Assembly: GCA_044226205.1 (NCBI GenBank)
Contig: JBGAHL010000016.1
Location: 8,208 to 72,207, forward strand
DNA from: Saprospiraceae bacterium
Lineage (GTDB): Bacteria > Bacteroidota > Bacteroidia > Chitinophagales > Saprospiraceae
Reading direction: 5' to 3'
Length of the DNA stretch: 64,000 nucleotides
The translations under genes and the position numbers were made by a program. Of this stretch, positions 20,000 to 56,772 are shown in pieces. The notes under the pieces were generated by a model. It was not told where the DNA came from, did not search any database, and was given only the letters and a program-made list of their open reading frames with translations. How positions within the stretch are numbered: the first letter of the stretch is position 1; every line of letters begins with the position of its first letter.

Positions 20000-21856
20000 A
20001 TGTTTCGATGGTTAAGCCTTTGCGGGGCCTTGCTTCTTTGCGCCCTGGTTCTTCCCGCCCAAAACCTCAACACCACTTTTCGCTCCAAAATGACTTTTAC
20101 CGGCCAAACCCTTGCGAACGTCTGGGGATATACGGCTGGGGGCCGTGAATATGCCCTGCTTGGCGCCCGCAACGGCCTTATTATCGTGGATATCACCGAC
20201 CCGGACAACCCGACCCAGATCGTCCAAATCCCCGGCCCGGCCAATTTGTGGAAGGAGATCAAAACCTATTCGCACTACGCTTACGTGGTGTCGGAAGGCG
20301 GTTGGGGCGTCCAGATCATCGATTTGTCCGGCCTGCCTTCTCCCAACCTCACCTACCACAGCTACAATGGCGACGGGGCGATCAATGGCCAGTTCAACAA
20401 GGCGCACGCCCTGCATATCGATACGACCAAAGGCTTTTTGTACGCCCACGGCAGCAACCTGTTCAGCGGCGGGCCGGTCATTCTGAACCTGAACCCCGAC
20501 CCCTACAATCCGACTTTTGCCGGCAAATACAACCAGCAAGGCTACGTGCACGACGGGTACGCCGACAACGATACCTTGTACGCAGGGCATATTTATGCGG
20601 GCACTTTTGCCATTGTGGATTGCACGGACAAGAACAATCCGGTCGTGCTGGCTACCCAGCAGACGCCCAACAATTTTACCCACAACACCTGGCCCTCGGC
20701 CGATAAAAAAACCTTGTTCACGACCGACGAAACCAACAACTCGTTTCTCGCCTCCTACGACATTTCCGACCCGACCGATATCAAATTGCTGGACAAAATC
20801 CAGAGCAACCCGGGCTCGAACTCCATTGTGCACAATACGCACATCCTCAATCAGTTCGCGGTAACTTCCTGGTACAAAGACGGCTTTACCATCGTGGATG
20901 TAACCCGCCCGGCCAACCTCGTTCAGGTGGGCAATTATGACACTTATCCGATTGGCGGCAGCGGCTTCGACGGCTGCTGGGGCGTGTATCCGTTTTTCCC
21001 GTCGGGCACCATCATCGCGTCCAATATCAATGCGCAGGGCACGAGTAACGGCGAATTATTCATCGTTACGCCCAACTACGTGCATGCCTGCTGGATCGAA
21101 GGAACCATTACCAGCGCGGCCACCGGCGCCGTGTTGTCGGGCGCGCAGGTGAGCGTTTTGGGGAGCAACCCGCTGACGCAGGGCCAAAGCGCCGTGGACG
21201 GGCAGTACAAAATCGGGCAGGAGCAGGCCGGGCTGTTTACCGTTCAGGTCAGCCTTGCGGGGTATCAAACTGCCAATATCCCGGTCCAGTTGGTCAATGG
21301 AGAACTGACGGCGCTCAACGTGGCTCTTTTTCCGCTGGGCGGTATCGTGGTGGATGGTGAAGTGCGCCGTTTCGGCACGCTGGAAACGGTGCCCGACGCC
21401 ACGGTCTGTTTGTACAGCGATGACAATACCTATTGCACCACGACCGATGCCTCCGGTCATTTTTCCATCTCCGACGTGCTGCCTGGCGTGTACGACGTGG
21501 CCGCCTCGGCCGACACGGTTGGCCTGACCATGCAATACCGGCAGGTGCTGGCGACCAATTCGTCGCTGGTGCTCGAACTTTACCCATACCATCGCCGCGA
21601 CGTGGCCGGGCCCGGGACGAGTGCTGCCGACTGCCTGGCCTCGCCCAATCCGTTTGCGACGGCGACCCGCCTTGCGTTTCATTTTTCCGGCGGCACGCAT
21701 GACATAAAAGTGTTCAATGTGGCGGGTAAAATGATCGAACGCCACATGCCCGAAGGGCAGGACGGGGTGATTGAACTGGGTGAAAACTGGTCGCCCGGCG
21801 TTTATCTGATCGGCATCGAGGGACAGGCGCCTTTGAAATTGATAAAAATGAAATGA
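20000..21856 (+). CDS. LVIVD-repeat (choice-of-anchor-B-like) beta-propeller protein with a CarboxypepD_reg-like domain and T9SS CTD (paralog 1)
   Basis: A signal peptide is present. LVIVD-type repeats include GLIIVDITDPDNP, GVQIIDLSGLP, FAIVDCTDKNNP, YDISDPTDI and FTIVDVTRPANL. The C-terminus is ASPNPFATATRLAF...GVYLIGIEGQAPLKLIKMK. Confidence 0.8.
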   Translation: MFRWLSLCGALLLCALVLPAQNLNTTFRSKMTFTGQTLANVWGYTAGGREYALLGARNGLIIVDITDPDNPTQIVQIPGPANLWKEIKTYSHYAYVVSEGGWGVQIIDLSGLPSPNLTYHSYNGDGAINGQFNKAHALHIDTTKGFLYAHGSNLFSGGPVILNLNPDPYNPTFAGKYNQQGYVHDGYADNDTLYAGHIYAGTFAIVDCTDKNNPVVLATQQTPNNFTHNTWPSADKKTLFTTDETNNSFLASYDISDPTDIKLLDKIQSNPGSNSIVHNTHILNQFAVTSWYKDGFTIVDVTRPANLVQVGNYDTYPIGGSGFDGCWGVYPFFPSGTIIASNINAQGTSNGELFIVTPNYVHACWIEGTITSAATGAVLSGAQVSVLGSNPLTQGQSAVDGQYKIGQEQAGLFTVQVSLAGYQTANIPVQLVNGELTALNVALFPLGGIVVDGEVRRFGTLETVPDATVCLYSDDNTYCTTTDASGHFSISDVLPGVYDVAASADTVGLTMQYRQVLATNSSLVLELYPYHRRDVAGPGTSAADCLASPNPFATATRLAFHFSGGTHDIKVFNVAGKMIERHMPEGQDGVIELGENWSPGVYLIGIEGQAPLKLIKMK

Positions 21857-21884
21857 ACGATCCTGCATTCAGGGTGTAAACAAG

Positions 21885-21926
21885 GCGGAGATTCGGGTAC
21901 AAAAAGCGGCCCGAATCTCCGCTTTT
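21885..21926 (+). terminator. rho-independent terminator
   Basis: A 13-bp stem gcggagattcggg/cccgaatctccgc is followed by TTTT. Confidence 0.65.
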
Positions 21927-22020
21927 CGTTTACAAGGTCACGCTCGTCGAAAAAAGAGCGTCCAATGAGCAACCCTGCACCCTTATTTGTGGTCTCCTGT
22001 CACAAAAAAATCACCTGGTT

Positions 22021-24435
22021 ATGAAATCAATTTTCCGACTCTTCTGTGTCGGCCTGTTCCTGTCGTTTGGCTTGTCTACCTTGTCTGCCCAAAACCTGAA
22101 CATTGCCTTCCGCTCCAAACTCACCATTCCCAACCAGACCCTGGCCAATATTTGCGGCTACGCCGCCAACGGGCATGAATACGCCTTGCTGGGCGCATCG
22201 AAAGGGTTGATTATCGTCGAAGTAACGAACCCTGACGCTCCCCAGCAAATCGTTCAGATCCCGGGTCCCGACAACCTGTGGAAAGAAATCAAAACCTACA
22301 AACACTACGCTTACGTGACCAGCGAAGGCGGCCAGGGCGTGCAAATTGTCGACCTCAACGGCTTGCCCGGCTCCACGCTCAATTACCATCACTATACCGG
22401 CGACGGCGACATCGCGGGCGAACTCAATACCATTCACGCCCTGCACATCGATACGACCAAAGGATTCCTGTACGCCTACGGCAGCAACCTGTTCAATGGC
22501 GGGGCCGTCGTACTCGACCTGAACGCGGACCCGTACAACCCCACTTATGCCGGTAAATTTGATGCCTACGGGTATATCCACGATGGCTGGGTCGACAACG
22601 ACACCCTGTACGGGTCGCACATTTACAACGGCTTCTTTTCCATTGTGAATATGGCGGACAAAAGCAATCCTGTGCCGCTCGGCCTCGAATTCACGCCCAA
22701 CAGTTTTACCCACAACACCTGGATGTCGAAAGATCGAAAAGTGATCTTCACGACCGACGAAGTGGACAACTCCTACCTCGGGGCATACGATATTTCCGAT
22801 CCGACGGATATCAAATTTTTGGATAAAATCCAGGCCAATCCCGGCTCCAACGCGGTCGTTCACAATACGCATATCCTTGAAAATTATGCCGTTACCTCCT
22901 GGTACACCGAGGGGGTGAGCATCGTGGATGTTACCGAGCCCGACAATCTGGTTCAGGTAGGATTATTCGATGTGGCGCCTGCATTTCAGGGCGGCGGCTT
23001 CGACGGCTGCTGGGGTGTGTATCCCTTCCTGCCGTCCGGCAATCTCATTGCATCCGTGATTCCCACGACCAGTTCGCCCGGCGGCGGCGAATTGTGGGTG
23101 CTGACGCCGACCTACACCCGGGCTTGCTACCTCGAAGGGGTGGTGACCGACGCGTCCAATTCCTTGCCCCTCAACGGCGCCAAGGTTGAAATTTTGGGCG
23201 GAGAAAATATCCAGGCGGCGCTGACCAATACCAGCGGCCAGTTCAAAACGGGACATGCCGCGGCTGGTACCGTCGATGTCAAGGTGAGTAAGCCGGGTTA
23301 CACGCCCGTCACTGTTTCGGTGCCCCTGGCCACGGCCGTCATTGCCGTGGTGAACGTGGCGCTGGTCCCCCTGCCTACGGTGACGGTCAGCGGTCAGGTC
23401 CTCGAAACCGGCACCAATGCCCCCGTCGCCAACGCGGTTGTCGCCCTCAGCAGCGATGACGGCCTCCATTTTGACGTGGCGACCGACGGTAACGGACAGT
23501 TCTCGCTGTCGGGTGTTTATTCCGGGCAGTACGACATGGTGGCCGGCGCCTGGGGCTACGGCTACGCCCTCAAAAACAACCAGAACGTCAATGGCGGCCA
23601 GTCATACAATTTCTTCCTGGCCAAAGGCTACCGCGACGATTTCGCGCTCGACTACGGCTGGGAAGTCAGCGGTACTTCGACCGAAGGCGTCTGGGAACGC
23701 GCCGAGCCGCAGGGTATCAACGTTGGCGTTGTGCTTTGCCCCGAAACCGATTTCTCGGGCGACGTGGGCGATCAGTGCTACGTCACCGGCAACGGCAACC
23801 CCGGCGTGGATGCCGACGACGTGGAAAGCGGCACCGCGATCCTTCGTTCGCCGGTCATGGACCTGACCACCTATACGCATCCTGTGGCTCGGGGCGTCTA
23901 TTTTTTCACCAGCATAACTTTTGACAACGAGTCGCTGGATTCCATCAAATTTTACATCGAAAACGGCACCGACGAGGCGCTGCTTCTGGCTGCGCCAGGG
24001 TTTAATTTTAGCTGGCAAATCCTCAACAAGCCCATCGAGCCGCTGATCGCCATCACCTCGACCATGCGCCTGCGCATCGAGTGTTACGACAACCCGAATT
24101 ACATCGGGGTAGATTCCTACGAAGCGGTTTTCGACGATTTTAAAATTGCGGCAGGAGCAGCCAGCGCTACCCTCGAACCCTTTGAAGGAGTGCAATTGAC
24201 CGTGCGTCCCAATCCTTTCCGGGGGCAAGCCATTCTCGATTACACCACGCCGGCAGGCGGCGAGTACCAGGTCGTGGTGACCGATCTGCTGGGTCGTGAG
24301 GTGGAAACGTACACGGTGGACGGCACCGGCGGCTACCTGTCGGTGGGCGCCGAACTGAGGCCGGGTGTTTACACAGCCCGCCTTCAGCGCGATGGACAAG
24401 TGTCGCAGCCGGTCAAATTGATCAAAGCCGAGTAA
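22021..24435 (+). CDS. LVIVD-repeat protein with two CarboxypepD_reg-like domains, a MAM/jelly-roll-like domain and T9SS CTD (paralog 2)
   Basis: By eye, the N-terminal ~330 aa are about 65% identical to paralog 1 (QNLN..FRSK.., WKEIKTY.HYAYV.SEGG.GVQI.DL). The C-terminus is VRPNPFRGQAILDY...GVYTARLQRDGQVSQPVKLIKAE. Confidence 0.8.
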   Translation: MKSIFRLFCVGLFLSFGLSTLSAQNLNIAFRSKLTIPNQTLANICGYAANGHEYALLGASKGLIIVEVTNPDAPQQIVQIPGPDNLWKEIKTYKHYAYVTSEGGQGVQIVDLNGLPGSTLNYHHYTGDGDIAGELNTIHALHIDTTKGFLYAYGSNLFNGGAVVLDLNADPYNPTYAGKFDAYGYIHDGWVDNDTLYGSHIYNGFFSIVNMADKSNPVPLGLEFTPNSFTHNTWMSKDRKVIFTTDEVDNSYLGAYDISDPTDIKFLDKIQANPGSNAVVHNTHILENYAVTSWYTEGVSIVDVTEPDNLVQVGLFDVAPAFQGGGFDGCWGVYPFLPSGNLIASVIPTTSSPGGGELWVLTPTYTRACYLEGVVTDASNSLPLNGAKVEILGGENIQAALTNTSGQFKTGHAAAGTVDVKVSKPGYTPVTVSVPLATAVIAVVNVALVPLPTVTVSGQVLETGTNAPVANAVVALSSDDGLHFDVATDGNGQFSLSGVYSGQYDMVAGAWGYGYALKNNQNVNGGQSYNFFLAKGYRDDFALDYGWEVSGTSTEGVWERAEPQGINVGVVLCPETDFSGDVGDQCYVTGNGNPGVDADDVESGTAILRSPVMDLTTYTHPVARGVYFFTSITFDNESLDSIKFYIENGTDEALLLAAPGFNFSWQILNKPIEPLIAITSTMRLRIECYDNPNYIGVDSYEAVFDDFKIAAGAASATLEPFEGVQLTVRPNPFRGQAILDYTTPAGGEYQVVVTDLLGREVETYTVDGTGGYLSVGAELRPGVYTARLQRDGQVSQPVKLIKAE

Positions 24436-47932: not shown

Positions 47933-48134
47933 TGGGTTCGGGTTATAAAGGTGAATGAATGTTCAACTCGGCAGGCTACAATAATACGGGGGGGAGCATT
48001 AATGATGCAAATATGCACTTGTGTTTTTTTGTAAAAGTGAAATTATAACCTGTGGTTGTTGGACTGGAACAGCAAGGAAGACATCTTTGTAAGTTAGTAC
48101 GTGAAAATGTAATCTGTAACCCTTTGCTATTTTT

Positions 48135-48761
48135 ATGAATAAGATTGTCGCTCCGTTCGTCGCAATTTTTTACCTGCTTTTGATTACTTCCGGTTGCGGA
48201 AAAAAATCAGAAGACAACACGCCGGAAATCACCTATCCGTTGTTGTTCGCCATTCAGGGCCTCGAATTTCAGCCCTCTCATTTTTATGCCCTCAATGCCG
48301 GGTCGTTTGTTGAAATACCGCCAGCGGGTTCTTTTGTTCCAGTGGATGCATTTCTGGAGCCGGAACTGGAAGATGCCGCCAGCTTCATCGAACTGGAAAA
48401 AATCGAACTGCTGGACGAGTCACAGGCCAAAATTTATTTCTTCGACAACACGGGCATTCCGGAGATAACGGCGGACTACACTTCCGACAATAATCGTATT
48501 CGTATTGTCCTGGAGCCAGGCGCCGATCCTGTGTTCTTTGACATCGATTACGAGGCCGGCACTGCCAGACTCGGTTTGGAAAGTACTTATTTCAGTTTCC
48601 ACGATTCTTCCGGCGACGTCGATTATTCTCCGCTGGATGTTGAGTTTAAAGTGCCTGGTTCTGCTGGCGACGTCATCTCGGCGCTCAAAACTCAGTACGA
48701 TTTGGCTGATGGCGACACGATCATGATTAATTGGTCCGCGGTGTTGTATAAGACGGAATGA
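48135..48761 (+). CDS. lipoprotein, unknown function (intermediate GC)
   Basis: The signal peptide with lipobox is MNKIVAPFVAIFYLLLITSGC. The mature part is acidic. No motif recognised. Confidence 0.55.
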   Translation: MNKIVAPFVAIFYLLLITSGCGKKSEDNTPEITYPLLFAIQGLEFQPSHFYALNAGSFVEIPPAGSFVPVDAFLEPELEDAASFIELEKIELLDESQAKIYFFDNTGIPEITADYTSDNNRIRIVLEPGADPVFFDIDYEAGTARLGLESTYFSFHDSSGDVDYSPLDVEFKVPGSAGDVISALKTQYDLADGDTIMINWSAVLYKTE

Positions 48762-49104
48762 GGGGTTGGGTAAGGTAAATGGTAGCAACAACTGATTTCT
48801 GAATATCGGAAGAGGGATATTTTCATTAGAGTTGTTGTATCCTAATGCGTTGATTTTCAATAGATAATGCAACTATTTTTCTTACAGATTGAAACCTTTG
48901 CATTTCAAATAAAAATCATTGTCAGTGACCTTGCCTTAAAAATCATAAAAAGTTGATTTTCATATTGCAACAAGGATAACTAAACAAGATATAACCCTGA
49001 TTCAAAGTTTTTTACTATAAATCTATCGCTGTTAAGACTCATCAATGACGAAAATTAATTTAACTTGCATATTTTAAACTATGATTTAATTGCTTAAAAA
49101 TATT

Positions 49105-50049
49105 ATGAAAGCGAATTCAAAATTACTGAGTGTTTGTAATTGGGCATTAATAGTAATCTTATTTTTTCTATTTTCATTACAAAGCTTTGGCCAAAAAGCA
49201 AAGGTCATAATTAATCAAGACCCAAACCGACCTGAGGGTTTTAGTTTTATTGATTCATTGGGCAAAGAGTCCGCTTACCTTACTACATCAGACCTCTGTA
49301 AGAGAAACCCTTATTCAAAAATAACTTTGATGCCAAGGAGCGGAGGTGTTCCTGGCAATTATCAAGCATTTGATACTGAGGGTTTGTCAGTACATCAAAT
49401 TAAGGCAGGATTAAACAATACTATAAAAGAATTTCCAATAGATTCTGTGCTTGAAAAAGCAAAAAAAATTACTGCGTCATATAATTGGTATTATGATTAT
49501 CAACATGAAAATTATCTGACAATCATATACACGCTGACAATTTATGATGAAGAATTAATTGAGATATGGGTGGAATCGGAAATAAATGTATATGAAAGCA
49601 TTGATAGGCCAATCTTGGTTTTTACAGACTATCATAATTTGCAACAAATATGTATTTCGCCTGATGGAGAGTATATGATCACGGGGCAAGTTTTGTCAAT
49701 GATTGGAGACGGGGCTTCTGATTTACCGATTGGAATGCTATTGTTTAACTTAAAAAATAAAACCTATATCGGGGCAATGCCAAATGTAATTGGGAATGTT
49801 GAACAGGCACAATACGAACAGGGTTTTTTTTTATTATATGCATATATAGATTATGATGCTTTTGTTATAAATGACAATATCCCTGTAAAGGTTGTTGTCG
49901 ATCCTGAAAATAGAAAAATTTATACAAAGAAATACAATTGGTTGGCAAGTGATCTGACAGAAGATAACCTTTTACATATAAAATCAATCTCTTTCCCTAA
50001 TGGGGAGGATATTATGACTTATAAATCAAGTCCTTTAATACGAAAATGA
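49105..50049 (+). CDS. exported hypothetical protein (AT-rich island)
   Basis: Begins MKANSKLLSVCNWALIVILFFLFSLQSFGQ (signal or anchor). The ORF is 314 aa with no recognised motif. A T9 run lies at 49824-49832. Confidence 0.5.
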   Translation: MKANSKLLSVCNWALIVILFFLFSLQSFGQKAKVIINQDPNRPEGFSFIDSLGKESAYLTTSDLCKRNPYSKITLMPRSGGVPGNYQAFDTEGLSVHQIKAGLNNTIKEFPIDSVLEKAKKITASYNWYYDYQHENYLTIIYTLTIYDEELIEIWVESEINVYESIDRPILVFTDYHNLQQICISPDGEYMITGQVLSMIGDGASDLPIGMLLFNLKNKTYIGAMPNVIGNVEQAQYEQGFFLLYAYIDYDAFVINDNIPVKVVVDPENRKIYTKKYNWLASDLTEDNLLHIKSISFPNGEDIMTYKSSPLIRK

Positions 50050-50176
50050 ATTTTTGTACTGCTATTTTTTGAGTATAATGTTATAGTTGAATACAAGAAG
50101 GAGGTGTAAATAGGCTTAATGTCCGGGGCCGCTTCTTGAAAAGGACGATATTTTTTTGGACTAATCAGCAAATTCC

Positions 50177-50443
50177 TTATCGAAGTATATTATTGTGGCG
50201 CTTGACATGGGGTTTGGCCAGATCCTGTGCTTGCCATTTGATGCCTGTTAGATCAATAATATTTTCGTGTACCTCCCAAGGATCGCTAACGAGAAACAAC
50301 GGTGATATTCTCTGGGGGCCACACTCCTTGCACTTGTACTTGGGGTTTATAGAACTATTGCTCTCGTTTTTGACGAGCTCTAATTGAGACAGTTTTTGTT
50401 CATCTACTATGTAATAGAACTTCTTACAAAGAAGTTCAACCAA
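50177..50443 (-). CDS. questionable small ORF (TTG start; single CxxC: KCKECG), possibly a gene remnant
   Basis: This is the only ORF of any length in the 483-bp gap upstream of the giant gene. There is no ATG start and no recognised family. Confidence 0.2.
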   Translation of the reverse strand: MVELLCKKFYYIVDEQKLSQLELVKNESNSSINPKYKCKECGPQRISPLFLVSDPWEVHENIIDLTGIKWQAQDLAKPHVKRHNNILR

Positions 50444-50532
50444 AAAATGGACGCTGTCGAATTTATAATTGTAAAATTATTTGTTAATACTTCATACTAA
50501 TGGTTTAATGTTTACGCCCAAAATTCGACGCT

Positions 50533-53500
50533 ATGAAAAAAATATTCCTGCTATTGCTTGCCTTTTCCTATTTTAAAGGCGTGTTTGGGCAAAATGGAAT
50601 GCTAATATCTTTGCAATATAAATTATGTAGCCAGTGCCCAAATGGTGATAACCAGTCAATTGACTACTCATATGATAATGACGCAAGCTCTTATATAACA
50701 GAAAATATAGAGAGTGATTATGATATGCGTGTTGCCGATGGTACCAGGTTTCACCAAGGGATTGATTACCTTCCTCGTAATGATTGCAGGGGAGATGCCA
50801 TCTTAAATGTAGAACAAGGTGTATGTACTGTAATGTACGTGGGGGGGGGGAACTCATCCCTTAAAAATATTGTGCTTCAAAATCAGGATGGTACACGTGC
50901 TTTTGTATATATGCATTGTTTTGTTAATGCCAATATTGGGCCTGACGGTTTGCGATCGGGAGACTTCCTAATTAAAAGGATTGATAATAGTACTGAACTT
51001 ACAATCATTAATATGAATAGTAGTCCTGTTGTTGCATATGCTAAAACTCCAAATAGAACTGTAACATACAAGCGTTATGTTAATTCAACAACTACATCTA
51101 CCGTTCAAACGACGAATCATGTAGACCCTGGTGCTATGATTGCACCAATTGGTGATTCAGGTGAGGTGCCAGGTGTACACCTTCATATTTCTCTAATTGA
51201 GAGCCCAACTCTAAATGATCCAGCCTTTCGTGGGGGGCGTGACAATAATCGATCTGTTGACCCCTGGACTGTACTAGAGCACCCTCAAACCAATTTTTTT
51301 CAACAAATACGAACTCGAAAGATTGGCAATTTTGATGCTTCAATATGTGAACATACGGGGCCTGGTACTGATAGTTGGGGTCAAATAGTACCTGATTATT
51401 CAGGCGATACTAGAAACACAATTGAAATTGAGGTTGCTCTGGATGGAGCCGCTCCAAGACCAAATGACGATTCCAGATATGCCAATAAGTGTATGGACCA
51501 AGAAGAGGTTGTTCTTGGAATTAAAAATCTCAACTTTAATTCCGATTTTTCAGTTGCAACGGGGTCGGATTTTGAATCCAAATTTATTATCAACCCAATT
51601 GGTGATAAAATTATTTACCCATTTACCATGCTACTGCCTAATGGGACTGCTTATGGCTCCCCGACAAGGAATGGAATGAGCCCATTTGCCTACCGTGATT
51701 ATATAGGGTTTCATCCTCATGACTATTATTTTGTCTCTGATTTTTATATGCGAATTAGCAAAAACGACAATCTGTTACCTGCCCCAGTTCCCCACATGCC
51801 CCCTCCTGTTTCTACTCATACCTTAGCGCAATTTCCATGGGATGCTAGATACCCGGATGGCGATTATCAGATGCGGCCAAGCATCTTAGAAGTCAATAGC
51901 TCATCATGGCAGCCAATGGCAAATCCTGTAGATTTCAAAATTGACAATTTTAAACCTTTTATTGTTAAGGTAGGATTATTTGTGGGTAATGTGACTTCTA
52001 GTAGCACACCCGCATATTATCGAGCTTGGAGTACTGATGGGGCACCTCCTGGCAGTTTACGTTTATCTGGCTTATCAGGCAAGCAGCCGTCTTCAACAAG
52101 TAATCAACCAATTACAGTTTATGTCGTCGCGAGTGAATCTATGTCTAAAGTTCGGGCATTTATCAACGGCCTAACAGGCTGGGTTGATGGAACTACATTG
52201 CCTTTTGATTCCAACGATCCTGATAGTTGGGGTCATCAAAAATGGGAATTTCAATTTGGGACCTATACTCTTGATCCAGATATCTGCTACAACATAGTTT
52301 TTGAGGGTGAAGATTTATCAGGTAACAAGTTATTGAATTTACCTCAGCCTCTTTATTGTAATACAGGGTCAAATTTAATCTTTACACCACCACATCGCAC
52401 AGGTAGTAATTCGTGGAGCAACAACTCCATAGGGCAAGGTTCTGATTGGGTACACAAGTTTCGACTAGACGATTGTGGGGGAATTTTTAATCTTAGTCCC
52501 TCTGACCCATGCATAACATCAGAAGATGTACAATATTCTCTAAAATTTTCCGAGCCCCAATCTCATACTGGTAGCATTGATATGGATATTTCGGCGAATA
52601 CTAATGGCGCCTCGTTTACCTGGAGCGACGAATCCGGAGCGGTCATAAGTAATTCGGAAGACATATCTAACTTGCCCCCTGGCGTTTACTGCATCGAAAT
52701 CCTGAAAGACTGCTGTTCGTTTAATGATTGTTTGGAAATCGGGACTTGCGCGCTTAACGTGACAGAATCGCATACCAACCCTTCTAATAATGAGCATAAT
52801 GGCGAAATCACTTTGCTCCCTGAGCAAGGAATTGAGCCTTATTCGTATCATTGGAACACGGGTGAGACCACTGATGCCTTGTTTGATTTGCCTGCCGGCA
52901 CATATACGTGTACAGTAACTGATCATGTAGCCTGTCAGGCAGTTGTCAGCATTACGCTAATTAATTGCTCACCAATTGAAGTAGAACCTCATTACACAAA
53001 TGTAGTTCAGCCTACTTCCTGCGATTCTGATGATGGTTCCTTTCGCGTCCTGTCTGTTTCTACACCAACCGGCGGCACTCCTCCATATTCCTATCATTGG
53101 GAAGATCAGGATGGGAATACTTTATCAGGTGGCCCAGTATACTCTGGTTTGGGGCCAGGGCAATATTGTATTGTTGCAACTGATGCGAATGGCTGCACTG
53201 GTACAAGTTGCTTAACGCTTCAAGCATTGAGTGATATCTATGTTTCGGAGACGATTTACCCAGCTTGTGAATTAGATTACAATGGGTCTATATCTGTTTT
53301 TGCTTCAACTTCAACGGGGGGATACTGCGATTTTTACTGGGACACTGATTTCCAAAATAATAATGATCAATTTTCAACAATAACCGGACTTGCAAGTGGT
53401 ACTTATTGCGTCACGGTTACGCCCGCTGATGAGCCCAATTGCATCACTACCAGCTGCTATGAGGTGCCATCAGTTTGGCCAGAACCCATGAACTTGTCCT

Positions 53501-56500
53501 ATAATGTTATCCATCCTTGCCCATCTCAGCATAATGGGTCAATTAATTTGACGATAACAGGAGGGTACCCGCCTTTGAAATTTAAATGGGAGGATATTAT
53601 TAATGATACGGATAATAGGACTATGTTGGGCGATGGGACATATACGGTTACTGTTACGGATTATTGCGGAAGTTCTATTTCTAAAACATTTATTTTGAAG
53701 TCACTTGAACAGCCGATGTTAGTTTCCCATCCTGGTTGCGAAGGCGAAGGTTCAATTGAATGTAATACTGTTCATGGTGGCAATTCGCCAGTTACCCTCA
53801 AATGGAGTACAGGTAGTACAAATTATGGGACAGCCGGGACCATAAATTACCTTCATTCAGGGAATTATTGTGTAACTGCAACTGAATCAGAAGGTTGCAC
53901 AAGCGTGAATTGCATAACTTTGAATAATATATGGTACACAATTTCAAAAGAAGAGCCATGTCCTGGATCTCATAATGGGTTAATCACTATTCATGTAAAT
54001 AACCCCAATGAGGGTGAGGTTAGCGCATCATTGGAAGGTGTTCAAGTTTTTTTCAATGCTCATGCTCCACAAAATTTCGATATCGAAGTTCCTTCTTTGG
54101 AAGGGGACAAAAATTACAATTTTGTCTTTTCGATAGACAATTGTATATATTCGGAGATAGTCCATCTTGCTAACTCACCGCTGGAAAAAGAATTTCTGGA
54201 ATACAATGGCGCGAACCATACATGTATATACCAAAACACCTGTAATGGAGAACCTATTCCTGGTAGTATAGTTGTTAATGATGCCGCATATAATTATTCT
54301 ATGGCAAGTGGAGGTTTCTTTGTAGGGTGTGAAATACCCGTTTCTTGTGACGGGGTACAACAGGATGTGTTGCATATCGATAAGATAACAATTCGTGCGG
54401 CTCAATATGAGCAAATACTTCTCCATGTCGCGCCACAGTATTTTAGTATAGACGTGGTTGAGTCACTACTTCAAGCATTTTATAACCAACATTTTTGCGA
54501 TTGCACATGGGTGAGATATTGCCCTGCAAATTTGGAAATAACATCTGTTATAGAAGGTCTTCCAGGGAGATGTGGCAATGCAACTCCTATTGAAGGCGAG
54601 TATGGTTGCTTTTCGTTGCATTGTGGTATTTTTGGTATAAATGATGAAAGTTTTTGTTTAGGGCAATATAGTGAAGGCTATCCAGTGAATATAATACCAT
54701 CCGTATTTGAAAATTATAATTATGAAACAACAGTTGAGGACTGCAACCCTGTAACGATTAATTTATATCAGTTAATCGTTTGGGCAAATGATTTAGATGA
54801 ATATTATCAGGATCAGGATTTTCAAAGTTCTCCATTGTACTATTATATAAATAATTACCAATCCGATCCTAGGGCTAAATGCGCAACCATTACATTTTGT
54901 TCGTCTAATTTACAGGTGCTATATTGCGATGTCGAACTTGTGAATTGTGAGGATTATGAGAATATATATCTTGATCCGGCAGATTGTAGCCATTGGGGGG
55001 ATTTATTTGGAGAAGATGATAGTCATTGTGAATATTTTTTATGTGCTGATCCAAATGAAAATAACATGTTAGCAGTTAATCATCTTGTTGCAGGAGATGT
55101 ACCATCTACTAGTTATATCCACGGCCATCTCCAAAAGGTTTGCGATGACTTTCCAGGGCACTTTTTTTCCTCGCCTGATGAAAGCGATGAAAAGCTATAT
55201 CTGGGCTATTCACCAAATGAGAGTTTAATAAACTTTGGAATAACTCGATTTCAAAATGAAATTTATCCAAAGGGGATACTTCGTGTAGGAGAAGTCGGGA
55301 TCTATTTGGACTACGCTCTTACTATGAAGTATGATCGAAAAGAAATAATTCCAAATATTTCTTATTTCGTTGACGATTGGGATAATAATCGCCTGGCTTA
55401 CGTTGAAAATGTACAAAATGGGAAATCCATATTAATGGGTTGCCAAAATAATATTTTAGATTGGAATTATGACCTTCACAGCGATAATTTCTTGTCTGTA
55501 AATTATTTTAATCAAAGAGACAGTTTTTATTTCGTGGGGGGAGAATTTCAAGGGAATCTGATGCATGGCGAGACAGTTATCGCTAGTGGAAATAACAAGT
55601 CTGGCTATCTTATGAAAATAGGTAAAGATGGCTCTACGTTATCTACTGATATATTCAGAATGCAAAACCCAAATCAGGCGTTAATTTTCGAATCTTCTGA
55701 CAATGGGATTCATGTATTAGGGCGAGGTGGGGATCAGCCTTTGTCGATAAATGGAGTGAATCAACTTGTGGCAAACAATAGCATTTTTGATTTGCTTATT
55801 ACAAATCAAGGTTTGGCAAGTGTGTATAGTAGCGTGCCATTTGACCCTACAAAGACAATTGTAAGGTCTGCCTATTCGAGTGATGGGTCATATAAAACCT
55901 TTCTCCTTCGTGATAATAATATTACGGGATCTGAGGCTAATAGCAATTTGACTATTTATACAGAGTCAACAAATGGAAATTATTGGACTGAAACAATAGA
56001 TGGTAATATAACAAACGATGACGTTAGCGTTGTGTGTTCTACTGATAGCTCTATAATTGTAGGGGTGTCTTTTCAAGGCACTTTGTCACTTCAAGATGTA
56101 GAAATTCAAAATTATGGAAGCACGGATATTGCGTTGTTGAAGTTTTCTACTAATGGTGAATTGCTGGGATATTTGAATTATGGAACGCCTGCAAGTGAAA
56201 ATATCTCCCAACTACTTGTTAATGATAGTATTGTGTATTTTGGCGGCGAATATCAATCTACGTTAGATGAACGCGCTATCGGCCGGCATAATTTCAAATC
56301 GCCTCCTAATGGTATGACAGTACCATATCTGTCTTACGTGGAGCTTTCTGATTTTCAATTAGTCAATAATTTTAAACCCAATTTGGAAAGGTCAGATGCC
56401 CCAATTAATTTGTCTCATTTGCAAATACGGCCTAATCCCTTTAATCAAAATTTCGAAATCCTTCTTGATTTAACGGAGGATTCAAATGTTCAAATTTCCA

Positions 56501-56667
56501 TATTTGATCCATTGGGCAGGGTTTTGAAAAATATATCAAGAAATGCTCCACGCGGGATATCTAGTATTTCTGTTAGTGATCTTTCTAGTTTGCCTTCTGG
56601 TACTTATTATCTCAAAGTTATTGTTGGTGGTAATCTGTGTAAAAATATATGTATAATTAAGAAATAG
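50533..56667 (+). CDS. 2044-aa T9SS cargo: M23/LytM-type metallopeptidase domain, unknown region, about 7 SprB repeats, a 20-Cys module, SBBP-like beta-propeller repeats and a T9SS type-A CTD
   Basis: The signal peptide is MKKIFLLLLAFSYFKGVFGQ. M23 motifs are HQGID (aa 74-78; His codon at 50752) and GVHLHIS (aa 214-220; His216 codon at 51178). SprB-type repeats include NGEITLLPEQGIEPYSYHWNTGETT..LPAGTYTCTVTD and DDGSFRV..GGTPPYSYHWEDQDGN..GPGQYCIVATDANGC (aa ~655-1212). The C-terminus is IRPNPFNQNFEILLDL...SGTYYLKVIVGGNLCKNICIIKK. Confidence 0.85.
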   Translation: MKKIFLLLLAFSYFKGVFGQNGMLISLQYKLCSQCPNGDNQSIDYSYDNDASSYITENIESDYDMRVADGTRFHQGIDYLPRNDCRGDAILNVEQGVCTVMYVGGGNSSLKNIVLQNQDGTRAFVYMHCFVNANIGPDGLRSGDFLIKRIDNSTELTIINMNSSPVVAYAKTPNRTVTYKRYVNSTTTSTVQTTNHVDPGAMIAPIGDSGEVPGVHLHISLIESPTLNDPAFRGGRDNNRSVDPWTVLEHPQTNFFQQIRTRKIGNFDASICEHTGPGTDSWGQIVPDYSGDTRNTIEIEVALDGAAPRPNDDSRYANKCMDQEEVVLGIKNLNFNSDFSVATGSDFESKFIINPIGDKIIYPFTMLLPNGTAYGSPTRNGMSPFAYRDYIGFHPHDYYFVSDFYMRISKNDNLLPAPVPHMPPPVSTHTLAQFPWDARYPDGDYQMRPSILEVNSSSWQPMANPVDFKIDNFKPFIVKVGLFVGNVTSSSTPAYYRAWSTDGAPPGSLRLSGLSGKQPSSTSNQPITVYVVASESMSKVRAFINGLTGWVDGTTLPFDSNDPDSWGHQKWEFQFGTYTLDPDICYNIVFEGEDLSGNKLLNLPQPLYCNTGSNLIFTPPHRTGSNSWSNNSIGQGSDWVHKFRLDDCGGIFNLSPSDPCITSEDVQYSLKFSEPQSHTGSIDMDISANTNGASFTWSDESGAVISNSEDISNLPPGVYCIEILKDCCSFNDCLEIGTCALNVTESHTNPSNNEHNGEITLLPEQGIEPYSYHWNTGETTDALFDLPAGTYTCTVTDHVACQAVVSITLINCSPIEVEPHYTNVVQPTSCDSDDGSFRVLSVSTPTGGTPPYSYHWEDQDGNTLSGGPVYSGLGPGQYCIVATDANGCTGTSCLTLQALSDIYVSETIYPACELDYNGSISVFASTSTGGYCDFYWDTDFQNNNDQFSTITGLASGTYCVTVTPADEPNCITTSCYEVPSVWPEPMNLSYNVIHPCPSQHNGSINLTITGGYPPLKFKWEDIINDTDNRTMLGDGTYTVTVTDYCGSSISKTFILKSLEQPMLVSHPGCEGEGSIECNTVHGGNSPVTLKWSTGSTNYGTAGTINYLHSGNYCVTATESEGCTSVNCITLNNIWYTISKEEPCPGSHNGLITIHVNNPNEGEVSASLEGVQVFFNAHAPQNFDIEVPSLEGDKNYNFVFSIDNCIYSEIVHLANSPLEKEFLEYNGANHTCIYQNTCNGEPIPGSIVVNDAAYNYSMASGGFFVGCEIPVSCDGVQQDVLHIDKITIRAAQYEQILLHVAPQYFSIDVVESLLQAFYNQHFCDCTWVRYCPANLEITSVIEGLPGRCGNATPIEGEYGCFSLHCGIFGINDESFCLGQYSEGYPVNIIPSVFENYNYETTVEDCNPVTINLYQLIVWANDLDEYYQDQDFQSSPLYYYINNYQSDPRAKCATITFCSSNLQVLYCDVELVNCEDYENIYLDPADCSHWGDLFGEDDSHCEYFLCADPNENNMLAVNHLVAGDVPSTSYIHGHLQKVCDDFPGHFFSSPDESDEKLYLGYSPNESLINFGITRFQNEIYPKGILRVGEVGIYLDYALTMKYDRKEIIPNISYFVDDWDNNRLAYVENVQNGKSILMGCQNNILDWNYDLHSDNFLSVNYFNQRDSFYFVGGEFQGNLMHGETVIASGNNKSGYLMKIGKDGSTLSTDIFRMQNPNQALIFESSDNGIHVLGRGGDQPLSINGVNQLVANNSIFDLLITNQGLASVYSSVPFDPTKTIVRSAYSSDGSYKTFLLRDNNITGSEANSNLTIYTESTNGNYWTETIDGNITNDDVSVVCSTDSSIIVGVSFQGTLSLQDVEIQNYGSTDIALLKFSTNGELLGYLNYGTPASENISQLLVNDSIVYFGGEYQSTLDERAIGRHNFKSPPNGMTVPYLSYVELSDFQLVNNFKPNLERSDAPINLSHLQIRPNPFNQNFEILLDLTEDSNVQISIFDPLGRVLKNISRNAPRGISSISVSDLSSLPSGTYYLKVIVGGNLCKNICIIKK
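50841..50850 (+). repeat. G10 homopolymer tract inside the M23-coding region
   Basis: The sequence is gtacgt-gggggggggg-aactc, read as V-G-G-G-N (aa 103-107). It sits in an otherwise AT-rich gene. Confidence 0.9.
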
Positions 56668-56694
56668 CAAGATATAGCAGATTGCTTATGAATA

Positions 56695-56745
56695 GGGCCC
56701 GAGAAACGGATGTCTATGTGATATTCGTTTCTTGGGCCCTTTTTT
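56695..56745 (+). terminator. rho-independent terminator after the giant gene
   Basis: A 14-bp stem gggcccgagaaacg/cgtttcttgggccc (one G-U pair) is followed by T6. Confidence 0.7.
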
Positions 56746-56772
56746 ATCTTGCTTAAATAAATATGCATCTCC

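Follow-up and report, generated by a model that had tools for sequence, protein, structure and literature searches.

Does a run of ten guanines inside the coding region of a large secreted protein act as a switch for slipped-strand phase variation, or is it a by-product of repeated glycine codons? This question is raised by a tract, termed G10 here, in a gene of a Saprospiraceae bacterium, located in a window (the whole stretch of DNA analysed) of 64,000 nucleotides. Poly-G and poly-C contingency loci are well known from Campylobacter jejuni, Helicobacter pylori, Neisseria and Haemophilus, and phase variation in Bacteroidota is usually ascribed to invertible promoters. The original prediction, made from the sequence of the window, had put G10 forward as a candidate switch of the poly-G type.

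Position and reading frame of the tract

The tract and the stop codons that would close the shifted frames were read directly from the window:

50841..50850, forward strand: G10 homopolymer, comprising the last base of GTG (V103) and GGG GGG GGG (G104-G106)
50862..50864, forward strand: TAA closing the frame of a G11 (or G8) allele, predicted product 110 (or 109) aa
50969..50971, forward strand: TAA closing the frame of a G9 (or G12) allele, predicted product 145 (or 146) aa

The immediate context of the run is gtacgt GGGGGGGGGG aactc, and the window letters around it are gtacgtGGGGGGGGGGaactc. The codons over the tract are GTG GGG GGG GGG AAC, encoding V103 G104 G105 G106 N107, so that both the position and the V-G-G-G-N motif given in the original prediction are borne out by the sequence and the codon read. 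The tract lies 5.0% into the open reading frame and is thereby a long G/C tract (about eight bases or more) in the 5' part of an ORF, as is characteristic of phase-variable loci. No other G/C run of at least eight bases exists in the 64-kb window, which otherwise contains 13 runs of six and one of seven. Two shorter runs that had been pointed out in the neighbourhood, a T9 run (49824-49832) and a G7 run (47988-47994), are both present.

In the assembled sequence, G10 keeps the 2044-aa ORF open, i.e. the tract is indeed in the ON frame, and the gain or loss of a single base removes the full-length product. Truncation had been expected after about 105 residues; the computed OFF products are somewhat longer, with the predicted stop after 110 aa in a G11 allele and after 145 aa in a G9 allele; the residues contributed by the shifted frames number just 4 or 39 and are unconserved. 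The frame would be preserved in G7 and G13 alleles.

The gene and its M23-like domain

The gene that carries the tract encodes a multidomain protein with the following features:

50533..56667, forward strand: 2044-aa T9SS cargo gene, with signal peptide, M23-like domain, SprB repeats, Cys-rich and repeat regions, and C-terminal sorting domain
50752..50766, forward strand: HxxxD motif (H74-Q-G-I-D78) of the M23-like domain, invariant in six homologues
51178..51186, forward strand: HxH motif (H216-L-H218) of the M23-like domain, invariant in six homologues
52996..53109, forward strand: best-scoring SprB repeat, aa 822-859 (Pfam PF13573, 46.5 bits, cut-off 28)
56431..56631, forward strand: T9SS C-terminal sorting domain (Por_Secre_tail), aa 1967-2033 (Pfam PF18962, 42.2 bits, cut-off 27)

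Its G+C content is 39%, not roughly one-third as had been assumed, and that of the window is 53%. The N-terminus (MKKIFLLLLAFSYFKGVFG) was judged by eye to be a signal peptide; the protein therefore shows both marks by which T9SS cargo was recognized here, an N-terminal signal peptide and a Por_Secre_tail domain.

The proposal of an M23 peptidase domain holds for the motifs but not for the family score. H74..D78, H128 and H216-L-H218 are all found in the cargo protein, H128 lying in a YMH motif and being, like the other two motifs, invariant across all six family members, and the tract is situated between H74-x3-D78 and H216-L-H218, as predicted. The match to Pfam Peptidase_M23 (PF01551), however, covers only aa 179-223 and reaches 18.6 bits (E 0.002), below the gathering cut-off of 28.7. 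The domain is therefore best called M23-like, judging from its sequence. A profile built from the six sequences and searched against the PDB retrieved LytU (5kqb, E 0.003), and in this alignment the tract region corresponds to a glycine-containing turn between the first two motifs. In addition, PF01551 appears in the precomputed Pfam list of one homologue (P0003). The AF2 model is poor (mean pLDDT 61); it places the three glycines, at this low confidence, between two predicted strands, and its best M23 match in Foldseek was again 5kqb, which was not significant (E 0.12, probability 0.54).

An accessory island with few known relatives

The gene lies in a block of low G+C content together with two further genes that are relevant here:

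48063..56770: low-GC (37-42%) accessory island with the cargo gene, missing at the syntenic site in two related Saprospiraceae MAGs
48135..48761, forward strand: 208-aa first island gene, no Pfam family; a similar-sized gene is found at this position in L002 and L003, and one of 341 aa in L004/L005
49090..50049, forward strand: 319-aa partner gene, conserved, containing the T9 run 49824-49832; 32% identity with the gene immediately preceding the L001 homologue

The host is related to the MAG STL-BAC35 (L104), with 93% identity in PriA and 95% in the neighbouring TonB-dependent receptor. Both flanks of the block are syntenic in L104 and in a second MAG (L086), at about 72-85% nucleotide identity, and L104 has a 336-bp spacer in place of 48063-56770. 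As a low-GC block is missing between syntenic flanks in both MAGs, we regard this region as an accessory island of 8.7 kb. Neither mobility genes nor convincing direct repeats were seen at the island ends.

Five homologues of the cargo protein are known among 5.8 billion proteins, at identities of 35-53% across the N-terminal 300 aa, one of them in a Saprospirales MAG (L001); closer relatives were not present in the collections searched. The surroundings of these genes (L001-L005) resemble the island, a partner gene of about 340 aa being located directly upstream of a cargo gene of about 2050 aa. A gene of 208-341 aa before the partner gene is likewise common to this layout, although the 208-aa protein has no significant similarity to its counterpart in L001. 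The shared layout and the overall GC content of the related loci (39-47%) suggest that the island was acquired from a relative of lower G+C content.

The tract itself is not shared by these relatives. In the protein alignment, the tract region of the cargo protein (VMYVGGGNSSLKN) stands opposite FV---KGDGNLKN, FV---KGNGNLKN, LI---FATDGLKS and LI---GVGYGLKS, its loop being three residues longer than in all five homologues. The homopolymer and the GGG motif are missing from 5/5 homologues, so that a tract maintained among relatives with varying length was found in none of them. The DNA of L001-L004 uses mixed codons at this position (GGC AAT GGC, GGC GAT GGC, GAT GGG and GGT GTC GGG TAT GGC), and nowhere in these four genes is there a G/C run of at least eight bases. 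As far as can be read from the sequences, the GGG motif is lineage-specific and the tract no conserved feature of the family. At identities of 35-53%, its absence in homologues says nothing for or against a recent switch.

The tract in public metagenomes

The locus was found in public runs from wastewater, activated-sludge and bioreactor metagenomes, which were examined as Logan contigs. Contigs of 13 runs, which belong to 9 studies (2019-2025), cross the tract as G10 with zero gaps and zero mismatches:

Runs crossed as G10: X1 (14.6x), X2 (156x), X4, X5, X6, X7, X25, X19, X26, X27, X28, X29 and the metatranscriptome X8

The contig of the metatranscriptome X8 spans 50366-51234 with G10 intact. 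Barring DNA carry-over as its source, this contig shows in situ transcription of the cargo gene in the ON frame.

These data bear on whether the length of ten is genuine at all. Homopolymer miscounts are common in long-read assemblies and several low-depth contigs are interrupted at the tract, which would fit an assembly or polishing artefact hiding a different true length. Against this, G10 is recovered without gaps in independent k-mer assemblies of all 13 runs, including the 156x run and the RNA run, and the G10 frame yields a protein of 2044 aa that is collinear with homologues of 2010-2054 aa. We consider an artefact ruled out by the 13 independent assemblies, its residual probability being practically negligible.

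The comparison of tract length across the public runs thus returned G10 in 13/13 runs at the level of consensus contigs. No G9, G11 or other tract length occurs in any contig of these runs, where Logan contigs represent the dominant path only. In a collection of 15 billion proteins, the full-length 2044-aa protein has one entry and the exact products of G8, G9, G11 and G12 alleles are absent; a protein search for short N-terminal fragments (83-262 aa) resembling the first 150 aa likewise found none. Patterns anchored in the flanks and allowing any tract length gave 0 matches in JGI metagenome contigs and species-representative genomes, not even for G10.

How much weight this uniformity can bear depends on the method. 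Logan contigs suppress minority alleles, and the depth in most runs is only 2-7x. Low-depth contigs of X3, X4, X5, X29 and X31 stop at or beside the tract, which could be due to low coverage or to mixed lengths. A C15 tract of another locus (L097, see below) served as a control: it was C15 in 4/4 runs of one study, and contigs broke off there in the two shallower ones. As this presumably highly unstable tract also appears uniform, contigs have little power to show length variation, and the uniformity of G10 is therefore weak evidence and no refutation of switching. In addition, contigs over a 3-kb stretch match the window exactly in X1 and X2 and only four substituted sites were seen in the other runs; this near absence of SNPs suggests a very recent split of the sampled populations. 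With a mutation rate of perhaps ~1e-4 per generation, a tract might still keep its modal length even if it were neutral.

Chance expectation and other G/C tracts

The original prediction had called a run of ten guanines very unlikely by chance. This is true for the single gene, in which an i.i.d. model predicts 0.0008 G10 runs, but it does not extend to larger amounts of sequence. GGG accounts for 30% of the 161 glycine codons of the cargo gene, and the probability of GTG GGG GGG GGG given the residues VGGG is about 0.005. In a background set of 1.72 Mb, mainly Saprospiraceae loci with some from other Bacteroidota, G/C runs of five bases were found 935 times, of six 171, of seven 32, of eight 7, of nine 0, of ten once and of fifteen once. 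The counts drop approximately 5-fold per added base, and extrapolation gives about 1.6 runs of at least nine bases against 2 observed, from which we conclude that a single G10 in a multi-megabase genome fits the neutral tail.

The run of ten in the background set, a C10, lies in a repeated contig end. The run of fifteen is the C15 tract mentioned above (L097:6691-6705), which occupies codons 6-11 of a gene encoding 946 aa, downstream of the start codon and ahead of the signal peptide's hydrophobic core. This gene encodes a NosD-type beta-helix domain and a Por_Secre_tail and hence a T9SS cargo. Its layout is the textbook contingency arrangement, in a further T9SS cargo gene from a related Saprospiraceae MAG, and it is the only other coding G/C run of at least nine bases among the related loci of the set. 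Runs of eight in the related loci showed no consistent placement at the 5' ends of genes for secreted proteins.

By-product or switch

We favour the view that G10 is a by-product of glycine-codon repetition which is prone to slippage and held in the ON state by selection, and that it is neither a demonstrated nor an evidently evolved switch; we give this reading a probability of about one half. The tract would have arisen in the host lineage as three consecutive GGG codons in the M23-like loop, either by codon repetition or by slippage. It would then be expected to slip during replication, with a change of one base ending the protein early; this expectation is based on the established instability of homopolymers and on published background (PMC2831843). 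The in-frame tract dominates every population sampled, and the ON state may thus be under selection. In favour of the by-product reading are the uniform G10 in the 13 runs together with the absence of OFF products, the homologues that lack a tract, the frequent use of GGG, the run count in line with a neutral tail, and the placement of the tract at the site of a glycine-rich turn of M23 enzymes, as seen in the alignment with LytU. Counted against it are a contingency-like site within the first 5% of a secreted accessory gene with nearby stops in both frames, the improbable codon choice, the C15 tract in another T9SS cargo, the limited strength of the uniformity evidence and the low-depth contigs that end at the tract.

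Most of the latter points are also what speaks for a true slipped-strand contingency switch, reversible between G10 as ON and G9 or G11 as OFF, by which the population would hedge over a costly or exposed T9SS cargo. Such a switch would allow escape from phages or grazers or a saving of costs, with the ON state favoured in the sampled sludge. A ten-base tract 5% into the ORF with early stops in both shifted frames, a product of the secreted or surface type encoded on an accessory island, expression in situ (X8), a codon choice of such low probability, and the related MAG with a C15 between start codon and signal-peptide core are all consistent with it. At the level of sequence, everything that such a switch would need is in place. 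These points are set against 13 runs and 9 studies with no length variant and no OFF-majority population, a protein collection devoid of OFF-allele products, 5/5 homologues devoid of the tract, a window with no other long G/C tract, and a searched literature in which no documented poly-G switch in Bacteroidota was found. We give the switch tentative credence, as the main rival of the by-product reading, and regard it as a plausible candidate.

A role of the run in transcription or translation instead, with the RNA polymerase slipping or ribosomes shifting frame on G GGG GGG GGG so that a short M23 fragment is made alongside the full-length protein, seems very improbable to us. At the neighbouring T9 run, the RNA data contain a T10 branch where most DNA contigs, including those at 156x and 15x, have T9, suggesting that slippage during RNA synthesis is conceivable in this organism. 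The RNA contig nevertheless crosses G10 itself without a branch or gap, and an RNA-level role is difficult to reconcile with shifted frames that add so few and unconserved residues and with homologues that lack the tract. A wider proposal, which we consider doubtful, is that long G/C homopolymers near the 5' ends of T9SS cargo genes form a multi-locus 'phasome' in free-living Saprospiraceae and other environmental Bacteroidota. If this were true, G10 (ON) and the C15 of the L097 MAG would be two of its members, and surface as well as secreted weaponry would be varied by replication slippage.

Comparison with known systems

The M23-like domain shares HxxxD, HxH and the YMH histidine with M23/LytM enzymes such as LytU (5kqb). 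In contrast to these, a long insert separates the two halves of its M23 core, and it is fused to SprB repeats and further modules, together about 1800 aa, followed by the T9SS sorting domain.

In comparison to the poly-G and poly-C loci of pathogens, G10 is alike in being an intragenic G tract of about ten bases near the 5' end of a gene for a surface or secreted protein, where a change of one base leads to an early stop. It differs from them in that length polymorphism was not observed, that it is the one tract in the window and that the homologues are without it; moreover, the host is a free-living member of the Saprospiraceae and the tract lies inside a catalytic domain instead of a leader or signal peptide.

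Prokaryotic genes generally contain fewer poly(G) and poly(C) tracts than expected (PMC2831843), and the general background on contingency loci can be found in PMC2831843 and PMC5084427. The inlA gene of Listeria monocytogenes (Orsi et al. 2010, PMC2831843) is similar in having a single 5' homopolymer whose change in length truncates a surface protein; there, the homopolymer is an A7 and truncated alleles occur in nature, whereas the intact allele is the only one seen for G10. The nanH3 sialidase of Gardnerella, as described in a preprint (bioRxiv 10.1101/2020.09.16.300947), has a poly-C tract for which slipped-strand mispairing was demonstrated, in contrast to G10 with no observed length variation, and shares with our locus a homopolymer in the ORF of a large, extracellular, surface-associated enzyme.

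The present value of the G10 locus is that of a well-defined target, with a verified tract in an intact, expressed gene. If switching were true, it would amount to a clean case of phase variation by slipped-strand mispairing in a wastewater member of the Saprospiraceae that is abundant and uncultured, giving control over a giant hydrolase of the M23 type which is secreted through the T9SS and could act on cells nearby, and it would extend contingency biology beyond host-adapted pathogens, and Bacteroidota beyond invertible promoters.

The low-GC island and its gene module

The 2044-aa cargo gene, which codes for a T9SS cargo protein with an M23-like domain, SprB repeats and a C-terminal sorting domain (CTD), and the 319-aa partner gene upstream of it are both part of a low-GC island.

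Window 48063-56770: low-GC island of 8.7 kb, containing the 208-aa gene, the 319-aa partner gene and the 2044-aa cargo gene

The island is missing at the syntenic site in two related Saprospiraceae MAGs (L104 and L086), the first of which carries a 336-bp spacer in its place. When the ends of the island were inspected, no integrase, tRNA or clear direct repeats were seen; a 9-mer, AAATATGCA, is present near both ends, at 48009 and at 56759, and this pair may be due to chance.

A conserved pair of genes goes with the cargo gene both in the window (48135-56667) and in five loci with homologues of it (L001-L005). In these five loci a partner gene of ~340 aa is found directly 5' of a gene of ~2050 aa with the M23-like/SprB/CTD architecture. 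The other member of the pair, a gene of ~210 aa (341 aa in L004 and L005), precedes the partner gene, and in L002 a gene of the XRE-type HTH family is located upstream of the module.

Two further genes of the window code for proteins that are additional candidates for surface-protein cargo.

Window 20000-24435: two adjacent genes for choice-of-anchor B family proteins (TIGR04312) of 618 and 804 aa

Sequencing contigs around G10 and homopolymeric tracts

In the 156x metagenome X2, two long contigs meet at window positions 50930-50959 and not at the G10 tract (50841-50850). The same run includes a 40-nt side contig with a loose end that matches GCCTGACGGT (50940-50949) in reverse complement. This has the appearance of an artefact, from either a hairpin or a chimeric read, at a short palindromic sequence.

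Other homopolymeric runs were found in the partner gene, in the locus of the homologue P0004 (L003) and in another T9SS cargo gene.

Window 49824-49832: T9 run of the partner gene (319 aa), codons GGG TTT TTT TTA (GFFL)
L003, 1273-1283: T11 run in the partner gene (346 aa), ~50 nt from its 5' end
L003, at 2285: T9 run just upstream of the start of the giant gene
L097, 6691-6705: C15 tract at codons 6-11 in the gene for a T9SS cargo of 946 aa, Saprospiraceae MAG JTS-AC40

Most DNA contigs over 49824-49832, including those of X2 and X1 (15x), read T9, and X14, a low-depth and noisier run, reads T8. In the metatranscriptome X8 a T10 contig (depth 7.39) occurs alongside a T9 contig (depth 12.9); this branch could stem from slippage during transcription, but equally from errors of RT/PCR or of sequencing.

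The tract of L097 has a length of C15 in four runs, which belong to a single study, and contigs break at it in the two shallower ones. It comes after the start codon and before the part for the signal-peptide core in a cargo gene whose product combines a NosD beta-helix with a Por_Secre_tail domain.
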